From: a virus
Taxonomy: Duplodnaviria > Heunggongvirae > Uroviricota > Caudoviricetes
Direction: 5' to 3' (one strand)
Length of the DNA stretch: 26,417 bases
Virus record (IMG/VR): IMGVR_UViG_2703718784_000007
Shown here piece after piece: positions 4,897 through 24,046 of the stretch. The notes beneath the pieces are model-generated. The model was not told the DNA's origin. It worked only from the letters and a program-made list of their open reading frames with translations, and did no database searches. The translations under genes were made by a program, and so were the position numbers. Numbering within the stretch: the stretch's first letter is position 1; each line of letters opens with the position of its first letter.

Positions 4897-5112
4897 ATGT
4901 ACCAGATGGAAAAAATCACAACAGGTTTGTCATACACCACGTCAGCGGTGGGAACGGGCTACTGGTTCCTGCAGTTGCTGGACAGGGTTTCCCCGTCTCA
5001 GTGGGCGGCAATAGGCGTGCTGGGGAGTCTGCTGTTTGGGCTGCTGACATATCTGACGAACCTGTATTTCAAAATTAAAGAAGACCGGCGTAAGGCGGCG
5101 CGGGGAGAGTAA
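4897..5112 (+). CDS. S: Class II holin, phage 21 S21-type pinholin with dual-start motif
   Basis: 71 aa; Met1 and Met4 starts (MYQMEK...); strong similarity to S21 as recalled ([14 protein letters not shown]...[20 protein letters not shown]). Confidence 0.85.
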
Positions 5113-5116
5113 GCTG

Positions 5117-5650
5117 ATGAGCAGGAAACTCCGCTATGGTTTATCGGCTGCCGTTCTGGCGCTGATTGGTGCAGGGGCGTCTGCGCCTGAAATCCTCGAC
5201 CAGTTTCTGGATGAAAAAGAAGGCAACCACACCACGGCATACCGTGATGGCGCGGGTATCTGGACCATCTGCCGTGGAGCCACCCGGGTGGATGGTAAGC
5301 CTGTTATTCCTGGCATGAAGTTGACGAAGGAAAAATGCGACCGGGTTAACGCCATTGAGCGTGATAAGGCGCTGGCATGGGTGGAGAAAAACATCAAAGT
5401 GCCACTGACTGAACCCCAGAAAGCGGGGATCGCGTCATTCTGCCCGTATAACATTGGCCCCGGTAAGTGTTTCCCGTCGACGTTTTATAAACGAATTAAT
5501 GCAGGCGATCGCAGGGGAGCGTGTGAGGCGATTCGCTGGTGGATTAAGGACGGTGGCAGAGACTGCCGTATTCGCTCAAATAATTGCTACGGTCAGATAT
5601 CCCGTCGTGACCAGGAGAGCGCGCTGGCGTGCTGGGGAATCGACAGATAA
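5117..5650 (+). CDS. R: SAR endolysin (signal-anchor-release lysozyme, R21-like)
   Basis: Starts 4 nt after holin stop; N-terminal Gly/Ala-rich weakly hydrophobic SAR segment (LSAAVLALIGAGASAP); EG...D...T catalytic region typical of T4-lysozyme-like SAR endolysins. Confidence 0.9.
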   Translation: MSRKLRYGLSAAVLALIGAGASAPEILDQFLDEKEGNHTTAYRDGAGIWTICRGATRVDGKPVIPGMKLTKEKCDRVNAIERDKALAWVEKNIKVPLTEPQKAGIASFCPYNIGPGKCFPSTFYKRINAGDRRGACEAIRWWIKDGGRDCRIRSNNCYGQISRRDQESALACWGIDR

Positions 5651-5947: not shown

Positions 5948-6442
5948 ATGAACCGCGTTCTGTGTGTGGTCATTATTGCCTTGCTGGTGGCCTGTGGTGC
6001 GCTTAGTCTGGGGCTGAATCATTACCGTGATAACGCCATCACCTACAAAGCGCAGCGCGATAAAAAAGCCAGAGAGCTGGAGCTGGCAAACGCAACCATT
6101 ACTGACATGCAGCAGCGCCAGCGTGATGTTGCTGCGCTTGATGCCAGATACTCAAGGGAATTAGCCGATGCGAGAGCTGAAAATGAAACTCTGCGTGCTG
6201 ATGTTGCCGCTGGTCGTAAGCGCCTGCGGCTCAACGCCACCGGCCCCGGTACCGTGCGTGAAGCCACCGGCACCTCCGGCGTGGATAATGCAACCGGCCC
6301 CCGACTGGCAGACACCGCTGAACGGGATTATTTCAACCTCAGAGAACGGTTGATGACAATGCAGAAGCAGCTGGAAGGGGCGCAGGAATATATACGCACT
6401 CAGTGCACTAAGCTGGCTTTTTATTATCCGGAGGATACATGA
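5948..6442 (+). CDS. Rz: Rz i-spanin
   Basis: Strong similarity to lambda Rz as recalled ([16 protein letters not shown]..., ...[23 protein letters not shown]); N-terminal TM helix. Confidence 0.9.
6168..6353 (+). CDS. Rz1: Rz1 o-spanin lipoprotein, embedded in the +1 frame of Rz
   Basis: Lipobox LVVSAC, proline-rich ([27 protein letters not shown]), matching lambda Rz1; fully nested within Rz. Confidence 0.8.
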
Positions 6443-6663
6443 AGAAATTACGGGTAACCGTAGAACCTTTTCAGGGAACAATTCCGTTCCGTATTTTGCA
6501 GCGTGGTCGTGTTCTTGTTGAAGGTTCGTTCAGTGGTAAATGTACGCAATTACACTCCCGGACCTTTCAGGTGAATGCCACGAATGAAGAGCTAACCGTT
6601 GAGTGTACGATGAATGCCGCTAAATGCCGCATGGTATCCGCTGCATTACAGCCAGTGTGTTGA
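6439..6663 (+). CDS. Hypothetical protein (74 aa), start overlaps the Rz stop
   Basis: ATGA overlap with Rz stop; GGAGGA RBS 5 nt upstream; no recognisable domain. Confidence 0.45.
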
Positions 6664-6971
6664 GCGACCTTATTATCCATGGCGCGGTATTGTCGCCGTA
6701 TTCCCGTATTAACAGAGACCGCAGCCCGACAGGGAGACTCCTCTGCGCGAGTGTGCGGGGATAATCAAAAACGATACACACCGGGGTTTACCGCGTTAAC
6801 GGAGCGCGGCGTTGTCCCCTCATGGTCGCTGGTCCGGTGCGATGGTGGAAGAAACCGGACGATGTGTTACCTCGCAAGCTCTGTTATGTCATGTGTCTGA
6901 TTTGTGATTTAAGTCGGATAATTGTCGTTGCCATTAAGCAGAGGATTGATGACCGACAGGGTGGCATTGTT

Positions 6972-6988
6972 AGAATAAGACTTATTCT
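6972..6988. promoter_or_regulatory. Perfect 17-bp palindrome AGAATAAG-A-CTTATTCT immediately upstream of the TonB-like gene (candidate operator or RBS-sequestering hairpin)
   Basis: 8-bp arms around one central base; AT-rich; ends 14 nt before the ATG at 7003. Confidence 0.3.
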
Positions 6989-7002
6989 TATCTGTGCCGG
7001 GA

Positions 7003-7335
7003 ATGAAAATGAAAAGAAATCTTCCGTTAATTATTTTGTTGTCTTCTCTGGTTATGGGCTGTACGCAACATAAAACAGATATGCCCCGACAGTTGGTTAA
7101 GGCATTACCACAATATCCGGCCTATGCAGCGGCAAATTATATAAAGGGACGGGTTGATGTGAAGTTTGATATTGGTGCTGATGGTACTGTCACCCGAATT
7201 GAGTTTATCCGTTCAGAGCCGCACCATCTGTTTGATGAGCAGGTTGTAAAAGCGATGGCAAAATGGCGATTTGAGAAGGACAGGCCGCGTAAAGGCGTGA
7301 AGAAAACGTTTATCTTTAGTCCTTCTGCACCCTGA
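7003..7335 (+). CDS. Lipoprotein with TonB C-terminal-domain-like fold; candidate moron
   Basis: Signal peptide with lipobox LVMGC (MKMKRNLPLIILLSSLVMGC); remainder resembles the TonB C-terminal domain as recalled (PQYPA.A......G.V.VKFD...DG.V.....I.S.P...F...V..AM..WR.E). Start chosen at ATG 7003; GTG 6994 or ATG 7009 also possible. Confidence 0.8.
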   Translation: MKMKRNLPLIILLSSLVMGCTQHKTDMPRQLVKALPQYPAYAAANYIKGRVDVKFDIGADGTVTRIEFIRSEPHHLFDEQVVKAMAKWRFEKDRPRKGVKKTFIFSPSAP

Positions 7336-7466
7336 TTATTTCATCAGAAATTAATTATCACTCTGTTGTTATTCTGTACATCCCGGCAGGGTAAGTCTTG
7401 TTCCGTCGGATATGAAGATGAAATATTGTTGGAGGACAGTGGGTACCTGCTCCTGTAACCGAACGT

Positions 7467-7667
7467 TCATTTCTCGTTATTTGTCATGCTGGCCGGGCGC
7501 AGATGCGTTGCATCTGTTGCCAGCCTTCTCCTGCAGGCTTCAATAACCCACGCTGAAAAGTTACCGGACCCTTTATGCTCAAGGGCGATGTTGATCTGTT
7601 CAATCATGTGATTGGGGAAACGGATATTGCGGGTTGTGGTTCTGCGGGTCCGGTTTTTCGATGACAT
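7467..7667 (-). CDS. Ribbon-helix-helix (Arc/MetJ/CopG-like) DNA-binding protein, orphan
   Basis: Internal ATG at 7667 of minus ORF 7467-7727, with AAGGAAA RBS; N-terminal beta-strand motif RNIRFPNHMIEQI followed by two helices; the ORF-track GTG start at 7727 would overlap the HNH gene. Confidence 0.55.
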   Translation of the reverse strand: MSSKNRTRRTTTRNIRFPNHMIEQINIALEHKGSGNFSAWVIEACRRRLATDATHLRPASMTNNEK

Positions 7668-8074: not shown

Positions 8075-8363
8075 CCCGACCCGGGGGGGTATCATCCGGC
8101 GTAAAAAACTATCGCTCCGGACACCGCGCCCCCTCTCACGCAGAGAAAAAATTCCCGTTTCAGGGCAGTTAACATGTTAACTGGCTGTCCGGGCATTTTT
8201 GCGGTTTTTATCTTTATTATTCAGTTTGTTGCGTGGAAAAAATGTTAACAGGCTTTTTCAGCAAATGTTAACCAGGCAGCAGTTAACATTTGCGGCATGA
8301 GACGCCGGGAAAAATGGGCTGAACCATACCCGGCTGAGTGCGTTCTGGACCCGGGAGGAGGCT
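8075..8363. other. cos / packaging-initiation region (candidate cosN-cosB) with multiple GTTAAC(A) motifs
   Basis: Non-coding gap between HNH and TerS; perfect palindrome gttaacatgttaac (8168-8181), further tgttaac motifs at 8243-8250, 8266-8272, 8282-8288 forming an inverted pair; G-rich tract near 8087-8100. Confidence 0.5.
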
Positions 8364-14162: not shown

Positions 14163-15253
14163 ATGAACGTGAACTGTCCATTATCCGTGCGCTGGGTGAA
14201 GAATTTTCCGCGGTGCTGGCGGATTTACAGCGCACATTTGAGGAGAAAATAGCCGCGCAGGCACAAACGTTTGAAGAAAAACTGGCTTCCCTGTCTGTGG
14301 TATTACAGAAGTGCGTGACGGGCGATGATGTGCGTCCGATGCTTGAACAGATAGTGAAGGAGGCGGTAAGCCATATTCCTGTTCCGCGTGACGGTCGTGA
14401 CTACGATCCGGAAGTACTGCAGAAGGCGGTGAATGATGCGGTCGCAAATATTCCGCAGCCGGCGGACGGTAAAAGTCTCACCCCGGATGATNNNNNNNNN
14501 NNNNNNNNNNNNNNNNNNNNNNNNNNGCGTCCGATGCTTGAACAGATGGTGAAAGAGGCGCTAAGCCATATCCCTGTTCCGCGTGACGGTCGTGACTACG
14601 ATCCGGAAGTACTGCAGAAGGCGGTGAATGATGCGGTCGCAAATATTCCGCAGCCGGCAGACGGTAAAAGTCTCACCCCGGATGATNNGCGTCCGATGCT
14701 TGAACAGATGGTGAAGGAGGCGGTAAGCCATATTCCTGTTCCGCGTGATGGTCGTGACTATGATCCCGATGTTCTGCAGAAGGCTGTTCTGGATGCGGTG
14801 AGTGCCCTGCCGGCTCCGCAGGACGGGCGTGATGCCACGGCACTGGAAATACTCCCCGCCATTGACGATCAAAAATCCTTTCCCCGGGGCACGTATGCCA
14901 CACACCTGGGCGGACTCTGGCGGGCGTATGAAAAAACGCACGGGATGCGGGGATGGGAATGTCTGGTTGACGGGGTGGCGGATATTGACGTCAGCATGAC
15001 GGGTGAACGGTTGTTCTCTGTGGTGGTCCGGCAGAGCAGTGGCCAGCGTACGGAAAAAACATTTTCCCTGCCGGTGATGCTCTACCGCGGTGTGTTCAGA
15101 GCCGGTGAAACCTACCACCCCGGCGATACGGTGACGTGGGGCGGCTCGCTGTGGCACAGCAACAGTATGACCGGTGATAAACCCGGAGAAGCTCATTCAT
15201 CAGGCTGGACCCTGGCTGCAAAACGTGGGCGGGATGCTGGAGGCGGAAAATGA
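14159..15253 (+). CDS. Hypothetical phage structural protein with N-terminal coiled coil and tandem ~54-aa repeats; sequence interrupted by assembly gaps
   Basis: ATGA overlap with portal stop; three visible copies of RPMLEQ.VKEA.SHIPVPRDGRDYDPEVLQKAV.DAV...P.P.DG...; N-runs at 14492-14526 and 14687-14688 lie inside the repeats, so length and frame are provisional. Confidence 0.6.
   Translation: MNERELSIIRALGEEFSAVLADLQRTFEEKIAAQAQTFEEKLASLSVVLQKCVTGDDVRPMLEQIVKEAVSHIPVPRDGRDYDPEVLQKAVNDAVANIPQPADGKSLTPDDXXXXXXXXXXXXRPMLEQMVKEALSHIPVPRDGRDYDPEVLQKAVNDAVANIPQPADGKSLTPDDXRPMLEQMVKEAVSHIPVPRDGRDYDPDVLQKAVLDAVSALPAPQDGRDATALEILPAIDDQKSFPRGTYATHLGGLWRAYEKTHGMRGWECLVDGVADIDVSMTGERLFSVVVRQSSGQRTEKTFSLPVMLYRGVFRAGETYHPGDTVTWGGSLWHSNSMTGDKPGEAHSSGWTLAAKRGRDAGGGK
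14332..14830 (+). repeat. Tandem 162-bp (54-codon) coding repeats, at least 3 copies
   Basis: Copies begin at 14332, 14527 and 14689 (gcgtccgatgcttgaacag...); period 162 bp between copies 2 and 3. Confidence 0.75.
14492..14526. other. Assembly gap (35 N) inside the tandem repeat; second 2-N gap at 14687-14688
   Basis: N characters in the sequence. Confidence 1.
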
Positions 15254-21200: not shown

Positions 21201-21511
21201 ACAGTATTGTGGACACGCCCACGTACTTTGCCTTTGCAAAAGGGGCAGGGCTGATGGGGGAGGCCGGACCTGAAGCCATAATGCCCCTGACCCGGGCAGC
21301 GGATGGTTCACTCGGCGTGCGTGCGGTGGGCAGCATGAACGGCAGTGCGGGTCTGGTGTATTCTCCGGTGTACCACATCGCCATTCAGAATGACGGCGCT
21401 AACGGGCAGATAGGGCCGGAAGCGGCGGGCACCCTTGTGCAACTGATTGACCAGCGGGTACAGGCGGTGATGCTGTCCATGCGACGTGACGGGGGAATGC
21501 TGAGTGGATGA
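18245..21511 (+). CDS. H: Tail tape measure protein
   Basis: 1088 aa; Ala/Gln-rich coiled-coil composition; position after G/GT. Confidence 0.9.
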   Translation: MATLRELIIKISANSQSFQSEIQRASRMGSEYYRTLQNGGRQAAAAAREQRRALAELNSQLTEIRASAVGMTGAFAGAFATGHLISLADEWSSVNARLKQASQSSDEFSSSQKVLMDISQRTGTAFSDNAALFARSAASMREYGYSADDVLKVTEAISTGLKISGASTAEAGSVITQFSQALAQGVLRGEEFNSVNESGDRIIRALAAGMGVARKDLKAMADDGQLTADKVVPALISQLGILRDEYAAMPETVADGITKVENAFMAWVGGANEASGATKTLSGVLNGVAGNIDTVATAAGVLVAVGVARYFGNMASGVGKATTELLAAKSGTVALAAAQADAAVQVQRKAAADALAAERAWQLAQAELAVARNTSAEALVTQNAVAKRRAMIVANAALVQSNHAVAASGKALENATSVTGMLKSGAASLLSLVGGIPGLLMLGAGAWYTVYQRQEQARESARQYASTIDEIRAKLPGMTLPELADNEGKTREALEEQNRLIAEQESKVRGLKTQIADYQRWLQENPQGGSGAEIITHGLAEATGRLAVEQSRLTQMQERARSVQETLASLEYNRVARIREEAAEQNRAYQALLQMNVQHTEFNRLLGLGNELLQQRQGLASVPLRLPQATLDDKQQSALNNTERQLALSRRKGEEKERARLGYAADDLGLVGDTYQEARQRYIRNSMEAWRNNEANKPKSRGGKSETEKAEDSFSRLLKQQKEQLGLAGKNTELAKLKYQTSQGELKTLTEIQKQELLRNAALIDQKKIREQLRAREETLKNDNADARASNDAELLGYGQGERGRERMRELQQIRDGYRQKDADLQSQYQTGDISEDFYRQALAQNAQYLSERLKDQEAFYAESDAQRADWQKGLQEGVSNWVDSASDYASQAAQLATDGISGMVSNITDMLNGNKVEWRSWAASILQEISKVLMNAAIVNGIKMAANSMSGAGGFFGSIGNWLGGAVANAKGGVYTSANLSAYSNSIVDTPTYFAFAKGAGLMGEAGPEAIMPLTRAADGSLGVRAVGSMNGSAGLVYSPVYHIAIQNDGANGQIGPEAAGTLVQLIDQRVQAVMLSMRRDGGMLSG

Positions 21512-21845
21512 GATTAAGACCCTTCACTGGTGTCCCCGGGAAGGGATGCAGGTGACGGAGAAACCGTCGGTGATGACGGTGAAGTTTGGCGACGGTTATC
21601 AGCAGCGTCGTCCGGCAGGACTGAATGCGCAACTGAAGACCTTTCAGGTGGTTTTTCGGGTGACAACGGATGCTGAGCGGGAGGCACTGTCCGCGTTTCT
21701 GTCATGGCATGGTGGTTACCGGGCTTTTTTGTGGAAGCCCCCGAAACATAACCGGACGGTCAGGGTGGTGTGCCGGGAGTGGAGTATTACGGATAACGCC
21801 CGGTACAGTGATTTCAGTTGCACGATAGAGCAGGTAGTTAGATGA
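21504..21845 (+). CDS. M: Minor tail protein M
   Basis: Similarity to lambda gpM as recalled (VKFGDGYQQR.PAGLNA.LKT..V.F.V....E...L..FL..HGG...FLW.PP); start overlaps the H stop. Confidence 0.8.
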   Translation: MDEIKTLHWCPREGMQVTEKPSVMTVKFGDGYQQRRPAGLNAQLKTFQVVFRVTTDAEREALSAFLSWHGGYRAFLWKPPKHNRTVRVVCREWSITDNARYSDFSCTIEQVVR

Positions 21846-22043
21846 GAATTATCCTATAAATCATTCTTTATTGTTTAGTTGTTAATTATTTTTAATCTGT
21901 CTTGTCAGAAAGTGCGAAATCGATCCTGTATTTACATTTTGTTACGTAATATAAATTGAACTAAGAATTTGTATTAAAATATTTTAATTTTTGTTCATGA
22001 CATCTGAATGCATGAATAGTTCAGTTTAAATAAGGATTAAATC
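21846..22043 (+). promoter_or_regulatory. Strongly AT-rich upstream region of the porin gene (candidate own promoter)
   Basis: Visibly AT-rich relative to flanking phage genes; AAGGA RBS before ATG 22044; no confident -35/-10 assignment. Confidence 0.3.
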
Positions 22044-23138
22044 ATGAAAAAAATGACAGTGGCACTTTCTGCTGTAGCAGTTGCAGTGATGTTTGCTGCG
22101 GGGGCGCAGGCAGCAGAAGTTTATAATAAAGATGGTAATAAACTGGATCTTTACGGGCGTGCAACCGCTCTGCATTACTTCTCGGATGATAAAGGTAATG
22201 ACGGAGATCAGACTTACGCTCGTCTCGGCTTTAAAGGCGAAACGCAGATTAATGATCAACTGACCGGATTTGGTCAGTGGGAATACCAGTTCTCTGGTAA
22301 CAAAACGGAATCTGAAGGTTCCGCGGGAAATAAAACCCGTCTGGCATTTGCAGGTCTGAGATTTGCTGATGTTGGTAGCATTGATTACGGTCGTAACTAC
22401 GGTATTGCTTACGATGTCGGATCATATACTGACGTACTGCCAGAGTTTGGTGGTGATGGCTGGACTCAGACCGATAACTTTATGACTGCCCGAACTTCCG
22501 GAGTTCTGACCTACCGTAATACAGATTTCTTTGGGCTGGTTGATGGTCTGAATTTTGCGGCGCAGTATCAGGGCAAAAATGAGCGCGATGACCTCCAGAA
22601 GGCCAATGGTGATGGGTATGGTTTCTCAGCCAGCTATGAGTTTGATGGTTTTGGTCTCGTAGCGGCGTACACGAAATCTGACCGTACTGATAAGCAGGTT
22701 AATGGAGGAAGCTCTGTTGCCAGTGGTAAATATGCTGAAATGTGGGGGGCTGGTCTGAAATATGATGCCAATAATCTGTATATTGCGACAATATATTCAG
22801 AGACCCAAAATATGACGGCTTTTGGCGATAAGGTTAACGGCATTGCGGATAAGGCAGAAAACGTTGAAGCTGTAGCGCAATATCAGTTTGATTTTGGTTT
22901 ACGTCCATCACTGGCATTCCTGCAGTCTCGTGGGCAGGAGGTTATAGTTGGTGGGAAAAACTATGGGGATCAGGACCTGGTTAAATATATTGATGTTGGA
23001 GCAACATATTACTTCAACAAAAATATGTCTACCTATGTTGATTATAAAATTAACCTGATTGACGAAAACAAATTTACTCAGAAAGCCGGTATTACTACAG
23101 ATGATATTGTTGCTGTGGGTATGACTTATCAGTTCTGA
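22044..23138 (+). CDS. Outer membrane general porin (OmpC/OmpF/PhoE family); moron inside the tail module
   Basis: Signal peptide [38 protein letters not shown]; porin hallmarks (FGLRPS..., C-terminal ...YQF); located between tail genes M and L. Confidence 0.9.
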
Positions 23139-23312
23139 TTGTTGCTGGTAAGTTAATGGTTACAGGCCGTCTGCCCTTACAGGCGGTCTGTATCAATGAA
23201 AACAGTGTTTTCATTGGTCACTGCAATCAGCAATTGCCATCTGGCATATGCTGATTTAACTTTCTGTTATTACCTTTATTGGTTTTATTTTAAATTGGAC
23301 TTTTATTGTTCG

Positions 23313-23336
23313 GGGCGCGGTTGCGCCCCTTTTTTA
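23313..23336 (+). terminator. Intrinsic terminator of the porin gene (ggggcgc-ggtt-gcgcccc followed by tttttt)
   Basis: 7-bp GC stem, 4-nt loop, T6. Confidence 0.7.
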
Positions 23337-23347
23337 TGGGCGGATAT

Positions 23348-24046
23348 ATGCAGGATATTCACGAAGCAAGCCTGAACGAGTCGGTTAAATCAGAGCAGTC
23401 ACCGCGGGTGGTGCTCTGGGAAATCGACCTGACTGTGCAGGGCGGTGAACGGTATTTTTTCTGCAATGAGCTGAATGAAAAAGGGGAGCCGGTGACCTGG
23501 CAGGGGCGGAAGTATGAGGCGTACCCGATTGAGGGCAGCGGCTTTGAGATGAACGGAAAGGGCAGCAGTGCCCGCCCGTCGCTGACGGTGTCCAATCTGT
23601 TCGGCCTTGTCACCGGGATGGCGGAGGATTTGCAGAGCCTGGTGGGTGCCACGGTGGTCCGCCGCCGGGTGTATGCCCGTTTTCTGGATGCGGTGAATTT
23701 TGTGGCGGGGAATCCGGAGGCCGACCCGGAGCAGGAGCTGACGGACCGGTGGGTGGTGGAGCAGATGTCATCGCTGACAGCCATGACGGCCTCGTTTGTG
23801 CTGGCGACACCGACGGAGACGGACGGGGCGCTGTTTCCCGGTCGCATCATGCTGGCGAACACCTGTATGTGGGATTACCGGGGCGATGAATGCGGGTATA
23901 ACGGTCCGGCAGTGGCGGATGAGTTCGACAACCCCACCACGGATATCCGGAAGGACAGATGCAGTAAATACATGCGCGGGTGTGAGATGCGCGGCATGGC
24001 GGTTAATTTTGGCGGTTTCCTTTCCATTAATAAACTTTCGCAGTAA
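23348..24046 (+). CDS. L: Minor tail protein L
   Basis: Start at ATG 23348 (MQDIHEASLNE...), since the track start 23306 overlaps the porin terminator; close similarity to lambda gpL as recalled (…GFLSINKLSQ end). Confidence 0.9.
   Translation: MQDIHEASLNESVKSEQSPRVVLWEIDLTVQGGERYFFCNELNEKGEPVTWQGRKYEAYPIEGSGFEMNGKGSSARPSLTVSNLFGLVTGMAEDLQSLVGATVVRRRVYARFLDAVNFVAGNPEADPEQELTDRWVVEQMSSLTAMTASFVLATPTETDGALFPGRIMLANTCMWDYRGDECGYNGPAVADEFDNPTTDIRKDRCSKYMRGCEMRGMAVNFGGFLSINKLSQ

Follow-up and report, generated by a model that had tools for sequence, protein, structure and literature searches.

The C-terminal domain (CTD) of TonB binds TonB boxes, both those of outer membrane transporters and those of group B colicins, by adding them as a strand next to its beta3 strand. 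The Shiga toxin 1 gene stx1, a prophage cargo gene, is reportedly iron repressed and Fur regulated, as Calderwood and Mekalanos are said to have found in 1987. Periplasmic TonB fragments comprising residues 33 to 239, 103 to 239, and 122 to 239 inhibit TonB-dependent transport, as results of Howard et al. (2001) are related in later papers (bioRxiv 10.1101/2020.01.05.895219 and PMC9841981). Llp and Cor are phage outer membrane lipoproteins that inactivate FhuA, acting on this TonB-dependent transporter from its periplasmic face, and that block phages, colicin M, and ferrichrome (bioRxiv 10.64898/2026.03.26.714494). Phage-encoded outer membrane lipoproteins that block an entry pathway and dominant-negative TonB fragments are both known kinds of phenomenon. 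Here we analyze a gene of a lambdoid Escherichia coli prophage (IMG/VR record IMGVR_UViG_2703718784_000007; its 26,417 nucleotides are referred to as the window) that encodes a TonB CTD on a predicted lipoprotein. Our leading proposal, to which we give an even chance, is that the protein would be an outer-membrane-tethered, energy-uncoupled TonB decoy, ancestrally controlled by Fur, that blocks TonB-dependent import of colicins, phages, and siderophores.

As a presumably uncoupled periplasmic TonB domain, the phage protein resembles the fragments of Howard et al., which, being inhibitory as related there, serve as the functional model for our proposal. Those fragments, by the same account, were soluble laboratory products and longer (residues 33, 103, or 122 to 239), whereas the phage protein is natural, presumably lipid tethered, and limited to the CTD. 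Like Llp (phage T5) and Cor (phages phi80, HK022, N15, and T1), it is small and phage encoded, with lipoprotein features and a predicted site at the inner leaflet of the outer membrane. Llp and Cor differ from it in fold, are unrelated in sequence, and act specifically on FhuA, with remodeling of extracellular loops; a decoy made of the TonB CTD would act on TonB boxes in general and would spare TonB-independent adsorption. Homology to Llp or Cor was rejected, as the PHROG matches include no Cor or Llp family and the fold matches are TonB CTDs; the resemblance would be functional only. Like stx1 and lambda bor, the latter occupying the same slot, the gene would be a moron with its own promoter, expressed in the lysogen, with iron as a putative signal. 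It differs from stx1 in its product, and Fur control, reportedly demonstrated for stx1, is proposed here from sequence.

What appears to be new is the recognition of these lipoproteins as a separate family, the division of its members between phages and chromosomes, the family-wide canonical Fur boxes, and the pairing with a lipoprotein that carries a TolA CTD.

The prophage gene encodes a predicted lipoprotein with a complete TonB CTD

The gene has the following parts.

7009-7335, plus strand: TonB-CTD lipoprotein gene, whole coding sequence, 108 amino acids (RefSeq WP_000828070.1, "TonB family protein")
6999-7002, plus strand: Shine-Dalgarno-like GGGA, 6 nt before the ATG at 7009, read from the sequence
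7009-7062, plus strand: predicted lipoprotein signal peptide and lipobox, MKRNLPLIILLSSLVMG/C (slash, cleavage site); Cys18 codon at 7060-7062
7063-7083, plus strand: short linker TQHKTDM, ~7 to 9 residues, between the putative lipid anchor and the folded domain; predicted local distance difference test (pLDDT) values are low before about residue 26
7084-7320, plus strand: complete TonB CTD, residues 26 to 104 (alpha1, beta1, beta2, alpha2, beta3), including the PQYP motif and beta3

The phage protein belongs to the TonB_C domain family; an earlier note on this DNA had pointed to its resemblance to the TonB CTD. Pfam PF03544 (TonB_C) matches it with an E value of 5.5e-15 and 56 bits (cutoff, 24.6) and TIGR01352 with 56.5 bits (cutoff, 27.1), while phmmer aligned residues 26 to 104 with the E. 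coli and Salmonella TonB CTDs in the PDB (E = 3e-16). The AlphaFold2 model, built from a 16-sequence alignment that superseded a 5-sequence run (pLDDT, 58.8), has a pLDDT of 87.1, with values of >96 over approximately residues 30 to 100 and an alpha-beta-beta-alpha-beta topology. Foldseek ranked TonB CTDs first (1u07, E = 3e-8); TonB bound to BtuB (2gsk_B) superposed with a root mean square deviation (rmsd) of 1.0 Å and a template modeling (TM) score of 0.94, and TonB bound to FhuA (2grx_C) with an rmsd of 1.1 Å and a TM score of 0.92. Strand beta3 (residues 94 to 103) is present and exposed in the model.

The likeness to E. coli TonB is confined to the CTD (residues ~150 to 239), to which the protein is 37 to 38% identical over 79 to 83 residues, with the same fold at an rmsd of ~1 Å, the PQYP motif, and beta3. 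Unlike TonB, it has no N-terminal transmembrane helix and no proline-rich spacer, the fold beginning ~8 residues past the putatively lipidated Cys, and it lacks the last ~8 TonB residues; it would be lipid anchored to the opposite membrane, has a family motif of its own, and replaces TonB Q160 and R166. The TonB equivalog models (NCBIfam PRK10819) aligned over their last ~80 positions only and scored 60 to 73 bits against cutoffs of 265 to 448 (73 versus 315). With these cutoffs missed, a length of 108 amino acids, and a lipoprotein signal peptide predicted at the N terminus, the protein was rejected as a TonB energy transducer proper.

Lipoprotein features were judged from the sequence: a positive n-region, a hydrophobic h-region, and a lipobox of the form [LVI..][ASTVIM..][GAS]C with an invariant Cys. 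The precursor begins MKRNLPLIILLSSLVMGC, followed by TQHK, and reads MKRNLPLIILLSSLVMGC-TQHKTDMPRQLVKALPQYP across the cleavage site; it has a positive n-region, a hydrophobic core, the lipobox LVMG/C to which the earlier note had also drawn attention, and Thr at position +2. The lipobox Cys is invariant in 13 family members at identities down to 34%. By these features the protein is predicted to be a bacterial lipoprotein and a substrate of signal peptidase II. Under the Lol +2 rule, the residue after the lipidated Cys directs sorting to the outer membrane unless it is Asp. In the family this position holds Thr, Ser, or Ala but no Asp, which under this rule places the protein, in all likelihood, in the outer membrane.

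The open frame spans 6994 to 7335 on the plus strand. We took the ATG at 7009 as the start; the RefSeq choice, the GGGA 6 nt upstream, and the loss of the alternative ATG at 7003 (ATA in ~15 related loci) indicate that it is the real one. Inside the gene, on the minus strand, lies an antisense, near-consensus sigma-70-like site (7136-7163; TTCACA-16-TATAAT, 11/12). Its -35 element is not conserved in the phage 21 homologue, so that the site probably arises only incidentally from the coding sequence.

The family occurs in unrelated phages and on chromosomes

A HMMER scan of 1.84 billion representatives returned many small proteins of 105 to 135 amino acids that share this architecture and in which the lipobox Cys is invariant, and the close homologues are all annotated "TonB family protein." A characteristic motif, SEPxHLFD..V..A..KW(R)FE..KP, sets the family apart, and the window protein is 41 to 50% identical to family members and 34 to 38% identical to TonB CTDs. 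The 13-member family alignment was too diverse for locus searching. Positions 6700 to 7500 are 100% identical to several Shiga toxin-producing E. coli (STEC) chromosomes, and regions covering ≥80% of this segment occur in 414 of 5,426 complete E. coli genomes; the gene is also present in Stx1a-converting phages, in phage 21, and on 218 IMG/VR viral contigs. Earlier annotation had described it in EDL933 as a [quoted passage not shown] and in RefSeq as a "TonB family protein."

The gene follows the lysis cassette, in the slot that lambda gives to bor, as the earlier note had seen; phage 21 has both a minus-strand bor and a 71% homologue ("TonB C-terminal domain protein"), which lies between bor and cosQ. 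In Klebsiella phage ST13-OXA48phi12.4, a 40% homologue follows the lysis genes, and in two more IMG/VR prophage clades the gene stands directly 3′ of differing holin-endolysin-spanin cassettes and before differing terminases. The postlysis slot is shared by several unrelated lineages of Enterobacterales phages with different holins, endolysins, and terminases.

Stand-alone chromosomal homologues, in loci without phage genes, are found in Raoultella, Klebsiella, and Serratia. The Raoultella and Klebsiella copy lies between the lacZ-lacI region, a glycine-zipper lipoprotein gene, and a DUF1440 gene; the Serratia copy is bordered by dsbB-nhaB and, at its opposite end, by genes for YcgL, an SLT transglycosylase, an FAA hydrolase, and a CxxCxxCC protein. 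Both a Klebsiella phage (L004, 1277-1903) and the Raoultella chromosome (L005, 7738-8301) have a DUF1440 membrane-protein gene close to the TonB-CTD gene, and this shared neighbor may be a trace of gene transfer between chromosome and phage.

The ratio of nonsynonymous to synonymous substitution rates (dN/dS) is 0.05 to 0.3 in every clade, which indicates purifying selection and argues for a functional gene family rather than a tonB fragment; between the window gene and its phage 21 homologue, dS is 1.6, dN is 0.19, and omega is 0.11. A captured fragment of host tonB was rejected on this ground (dN/dS, ~0.1), on the greater identity to the lipoprotein family than to TonB, and on the gene's own signal peptide. 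Several database clusters of the phage 21-type protein (P0012, P0013, P0015, P0018, P0019, and P0021) have a frameshifted tail after ...AKWRFEK, with the loss of beta3. All phage 21-type loci examined in IMG/VR are intact (73 of 74 loci, the remaining one being of the window type), so the frameshifted variants may be assembly errors or occasional inactivation near a C-run.

The putative promoter region contains a perfect palindrome and a Fur-like site

Four elements precede the coding sequence; besides the Shine-Dalgarno-like GGGA, they are as follows.

6949-6976, plus strand: sigma-70 promoter-like site, with -35-like ATGACC (6949-6954), a 16-nt spacer, TG (6968-6969), and -10 TAGAAT (6971-6976); consensus scan, 9/12 plus TG
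6972-6988: perfect 17-bp palindrome AGAATAAG-A-CTTATTCT (arms 8+1+8), a candidate operator that overlaps the -10 element and the predicted +1
6974-6992: Fur-box-like 19-mer AATAAGACTTATTCTTATC, centered 26 nt before the ATG, 12.4 bits

The earlier note had reported a perfect 17-bp palindrome immediately upstream of the gene, and this lies at exactly 6972 to 6988. Alone, the palindrome is not extraordinary: ~0.45 palindromes of the 8+1+8 type are expected per window (~1.9 with spacers of 0 to 3), and 8 distinct ones are present. Its position is nonrandom, since it overlaps the promoter-like site and the second-best match to the Fur matrix described below. Transcription is predicted to start near 6983 from an extended -10 element, TGtTAGAAT. 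The block ATTGT(T/C)AGAATAAGAC is identical at 15 of 16 positions between the window clade and the phage 21 clade despite saturated synonymous sites, and in the P0034 phage clade TGTTAGTAT occupies the same place as the extended -10 block of the window. We conclude that the left half of the palindrome is, on comparative grounds, probably a conserved promoter element.

The note's suggestion that the palindrome is an operator is plausible. In its favor, the palindrome overlaps the promoter-like site and is kept within the close clade: of 80 near-identical IMG/VR loci, 74 have it intact and 6 carry single-base changes, and it is also perfect in an 89%-identity variant (L156) whose flanks differ. 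Against it, the palindrome is degenerate in the single 72% variant (L157; Fur score, 0.9 bits), and its right arm is gone from the ~100 loci of the phage 21 clade, which keep only ATTGTCAGAATAAGAC, the extended -10 element. Two double changes in L157 did not amount to significant covariation (simulation P = 0.27; P = 0.12 for all pairs kept), and scans of IMG/VR and a metagenome collection yielded no further intermediate variants. The whole palindrome is a lineage-specific candidate operator, possibly of Fur-box origin. An RNA hairpin or regulatory RNA was rejected (minimum free energy, -4.9 kcal/mol; z = +0.24, no better than shuffles), as was an intrinsic terminator, the terminator scan finding none there.

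A loose resemblance to Fur boxes had been noted as well, and we scored it with a weight matrix. The matrix, which is symmetric, was built from the centers of 15 strong K-12 Fur sites (Chen et al. 2007, PMC2189734, Table 4) with sequences taken from NC_000913.3; its consensus is AATGATAATCATTATCATT, and leave-one-out training scores range from 16.6 to 27.7 bits. A Fur box was taken to be a 19-bp match to GATAATGATAATCATTATC, or to a matrix from footprinted or shifted sites, that overlaps the promoter. The window site ranks 2 among 26,399 positions, and 25 of 5,000 shuffles of positions 6890 to 7008 (119 nt) reached 12.4 bits. It agrees with the classical consensus at 12 to 13 of 19 positions and scores below every training site, and its dyad is centered at 6983, 3 bp from the palindrome center at 6980. 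The corresponding genes of relatives are preceded by the following sites.

Raoultella/Klebsiella chromosomal genes: 25.5 to 27.1 bits, ATTGA(G/T)AATTATTATCAAT, rank 1 in the locus, centered 19 to 23 nt before the start
P0034 phage clade: 27.1 to 27.7 bits, a perfect TGATAAT-n-ATTATCA directly after TGTTAGTAT, rank 1, centered 22 nt before the start
L133-L138 phage clade: 26.6 bits, ATTGAAAATCATTATCATT, rank 1, centered ~53 nt before the start
Serratia: 26.6 bits, ATTGATAATGATTTTCATT, rank 1, centered 58 nt before the start
L009/L121 phage type: 16.3 bits, GATAATATTAATTATCATT, rank 1, centered 28 nt before the start

The remaining Klebsiella-phage clade scores 2.5 to 11 bits at the equivalent spot. 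Among 218,780 pooled positions, 8 sites reach ≥25 bits, and 7 of these are boxes before the TonB-CTD lipoprotein genes of relatives. Because such top-scoring boxes precede the gene in relatives and make up nearly all sites of this strength, Fur control is very likely an ancestral trait of the family. For the window copy it is plausible: the suspected Fur resemblance led to canonical boxes in relatives of five clades (25.5 to 27.7 bits), but the window site itself reaches only 12.4 bits, with its axis offset.

It is quite conceivable, if somewhat short of an even chance, that the palindrome has no operator function, its left half being the extended -10 element and its right arm a chance or decaying remnant, with the gene expressed constitutively or from the late transcript and not under Fur. 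The retention of the left arm with the -10 element in the phage 21 clade, where ~100 loci have deleted the right arm, fits this explanation, as do the abundance of such palindromes in the window, the Fur score well under those of the training sites, the nonsignificance of the apparent compensatory changes in the 72% variant, and weak constraint in the close clade (1 to 2 variable columns of 29, versus ~14 of 81). The high rank of the Fur-like site in the window and the few shuffles that match its score speak against it; the distance to the start codon is the same as that of canonical boxes in relatives, and the palindrome is intact in the 89% variant despite changed flanks.

Chen et al. (2007, PMC2189734) reported, and gel shifted, strong Fur sites that precede nohB and nohA in K-12 prophages. 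These sites, in DLP12 (nohB; L139, 4090-4114) and Qin (nohA; L140, 3589-3613), consist of a lambda-type GATGATAAT(C/T)ATTATCA ~35 nt from cosN. They were considered as remnants of a TonB-CTD gene promoter and rejected, being the unrelated lambda-type cosQ-proximal sequence (GATGATAATCATTATCAC) by cosN.

A putative TonB decoy and competing explanations

In the proposed mechanism, the gene is a moron whose product, after cleavage by signal peptidase II and Lol sorting, would be tethered to the outer membrane's inner leaflet through a ~8-residue linker and present its TonB CTD directly beneath the barrels of TonB-dependent transporters. By beta-strand pairing, it would occupy the TonB boxes of the transporters, or those of group B colicins when these reach the periplasm. 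The lack of the TonB transmembrane helix and proline-rich spacer would preclude coupling to ExbB-ExbD, which makes dominant-negative action most likely. Import of TonB-dependent phages (T1 and phi80), of colicins B, D, Ia, and M, of microcins, and to some degree of siderophores would be blocked. The gene's own extended -10 promoter would allow expression in the lysogen, and the gene would also lie within the late transcript. An ancestral Fur box overlapping the promoter would turn the protein on together with the transporters that it targets, so that the blocker would scale with its targets; in the window, the operator would have diverged to a perfect palindrome that retains only a moderate Fur match. 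The prophage J tip is lambda-J-like and not of the FhuA type, so foreign agents are a likelier target than the phage itself, and self-exclusion was dropped as the main role.

Several points weigh against a decoy of this kind. An uptake blocker that iron starvation switches on would deprive the host of iron just when supplies are short, and the conserved, Fur-preceded, stand-alone chromosomal copies suggest a housekeeping role in iron physiology over pure defense. Transporter-facing TonB positions are changed in the family alignment (Q160 to L or Y; R166 to Y), the inhibitory TonB fragments that serve as precedent are longer than a bare CTD, and PADLOC gives no match. The Fur match of the window is 4 to 15 bits under bona fide strong sites, its axis lies 3 bp off that of the palindrome, and the phage 21 clade manages without the operator. 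In the literature searched, we found no functional study of the TonB-CTD lipoprotein and no evidence of its expression.

Some of these points fit an accessory role in iron physiology, in which the protein would tune or help TonB-dependent transport or signaling during iron starvation as a phage fitness gene for the lysogen; it might hold or pre-organize TonB boxes, keep down futile cycling of TonB, or adjust signaling of the FecA type. The top-strength Fur boxes, the stand-alone chromosomal copies in three genera, the strong purifying selection, and the iron cargo sitABCD that phage 21 also carries are in keeping with such a role. We nonetheless regard it as unlikely, given that the protein lacks the ExbBD-coupling part, that no transporter or exbBD gene is linked to it in any locus examined, and that uncoupled periplasmic TonB domains were, in the sole experimental precedent, inhibitory. 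Less probable still is a TonB-like fold re-purposed to bind another ligand (a host protein, heme, peptidoglycan, or a phage component) and not TonB boxes, as FusB binds ferredoxin. The close fold matches include FusB CTD structures (7zc8 and 9hi3), the family motif is distinctive, and Tyr replaces TonB R166; yet the beta3 edge and PxYP motif are kept, TonB with a bound TonB box gives the best fold matches, and the gene neighborhoods yield no candidate ligand.

A PHROG scan, whose matches were limited to phrog_1267 (E = 1.9e-42, "Rz-like spanin," lysis category) and the TonB-like phrog_34172, raises the further idea of a lysis accessory or spanin, which the lipoprotein features and a location always just 3′ of the lysis cassette would also suit. 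We consider this highly improbable. The window already has its own, separate Rz and Rz1 genes, which together with the TonB-CTD fold contradict the label; the protein is a globular TonB CTD with neither a C-terminal transmembrane or hydrophobic segment nor proline-rich o-spanin character, and chromosomal homologues exist without lysis genes. Measured against the features of i-spanins (transmembrane segment plus coiled coil), o-spanins (small proline-rich lipoprotein nested in Rz), and u-spanins (lipoprotein plus C-terminal transmembrane segment), the protein showed none that would place it in one of these classes, and membership was rejected. The phrog_1267 label is best explained as a position-based misannotation.

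If the decoy proposal is true, lysogens would differ in their sensitivity to TonB-dependent agents, namely colicins, microcins, phages, and siderophore-antibiotic conjugates (uptake of the albomycin or cefiderocol type), and iron acquisition by pathogens, STEC and Klebsiella among them, would be affected as well. The gene is common, yet databases say only "TonB family protein" or, wrongly, "Rz-like spanin," and the family-wide Fur boxes offer a clear and cheap experimental handle.

In the b region of phage 21, we observed sitBCD and presumably sitA, genes of an iron/manganese ABC transporter (OL657228.1, 21967-24502; L294, 12968-15001).

Gene order and other prophage cargo

The following genes surround the TonB-CTD lipoprotein gene.

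4897-5112: holin
5117-5650: lysozyme
5948-6442: Rz (PF03245, E = 2.6e-48)
6168-6353: Rz1, nested in Rz (PF06085, E = 2.5e-21)
6439-6663: open reading frame of 74 amino acids between Rz/Rz1 and the TonB-CTD lipoprotein gene
3′ of the TonB-CTD lipoprotein gene, minus strand: DUF3950 (YlcI/YnfO) gene
3′ of the DUF3950 gene: HNH endonuclease, then the terminase small and large subunits

The prophage carries an architectural twin of the TonB-CTD lipoprotein. A gene at 301-729 on the plus strand, where stx lies in Stx phages, encodes a predicted lipoprotein of 142 amino acids with a TolA CTD (PF06519, E = 3.4e-22); its precursor reads MYCRAVPVLVLILASLTTG followed by C TKD, with the lipobox LTTG/C. 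TolA-CTD relatives occur on 125 IMG/VR contigs. The best Fur-matrix match of the window (13.4 bits, 265-283) is centered 27 nt before the ATG of this gene; Fur control of the twin was rejected, since the site is found in the window clade only and a commoner clade, at 65% identity, scores 1.1 bits.

Inserted between the M-like (21504-21845) and L (23306-24046) tail genes is a complete gene for a Gram-negative porin (22044-23138, plus strand; 364 amino acids; PF00267, E = 4e-143). The porin gene is flanked by perfect AT-rich palindromes, and the third-best Fur-matrix match of the window (10.8 bits) lies upstream of it. The sites listed with the gene are as follows.

21878-21896
21973-21988
23196-23214

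The TolA-CTD lipoprotein and the porin gene cover the other classical entry routes, which fits the decoy proposal, and the pairing of TonB and TolA CTDs suggests a general strategy. A wider version of the proposal, which we put forward tentatively and would not expect to hold in full, is that temperate phages of the Enterobacterales, and some chromosomes, deploy the tip domains of the two energized trans-envelope systems, TonB and TolA, as outer membrane lipoproteins that act as natural, dominant-negative coupler decoys. The window prophage would have both, with the TonB decoy timed by Fur to coincide with its target transporters. Its lysogen would tolerate microcins, group B colicins, and phages that depend on TonB, and the TolA twin would add tolerance of group A colicins and filamentous phages; the defense would jam energy coupling rather than mask receptors.

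Between the HNH endonuclease and small terminase genes lies a perfect 18-bp palindrome, CAGTTAACATGTTAACTG (8166-8183), which may be related to cos or terminase binding. The head/tail gene region contains runs of N at 14492-14526 and 14687-14688.

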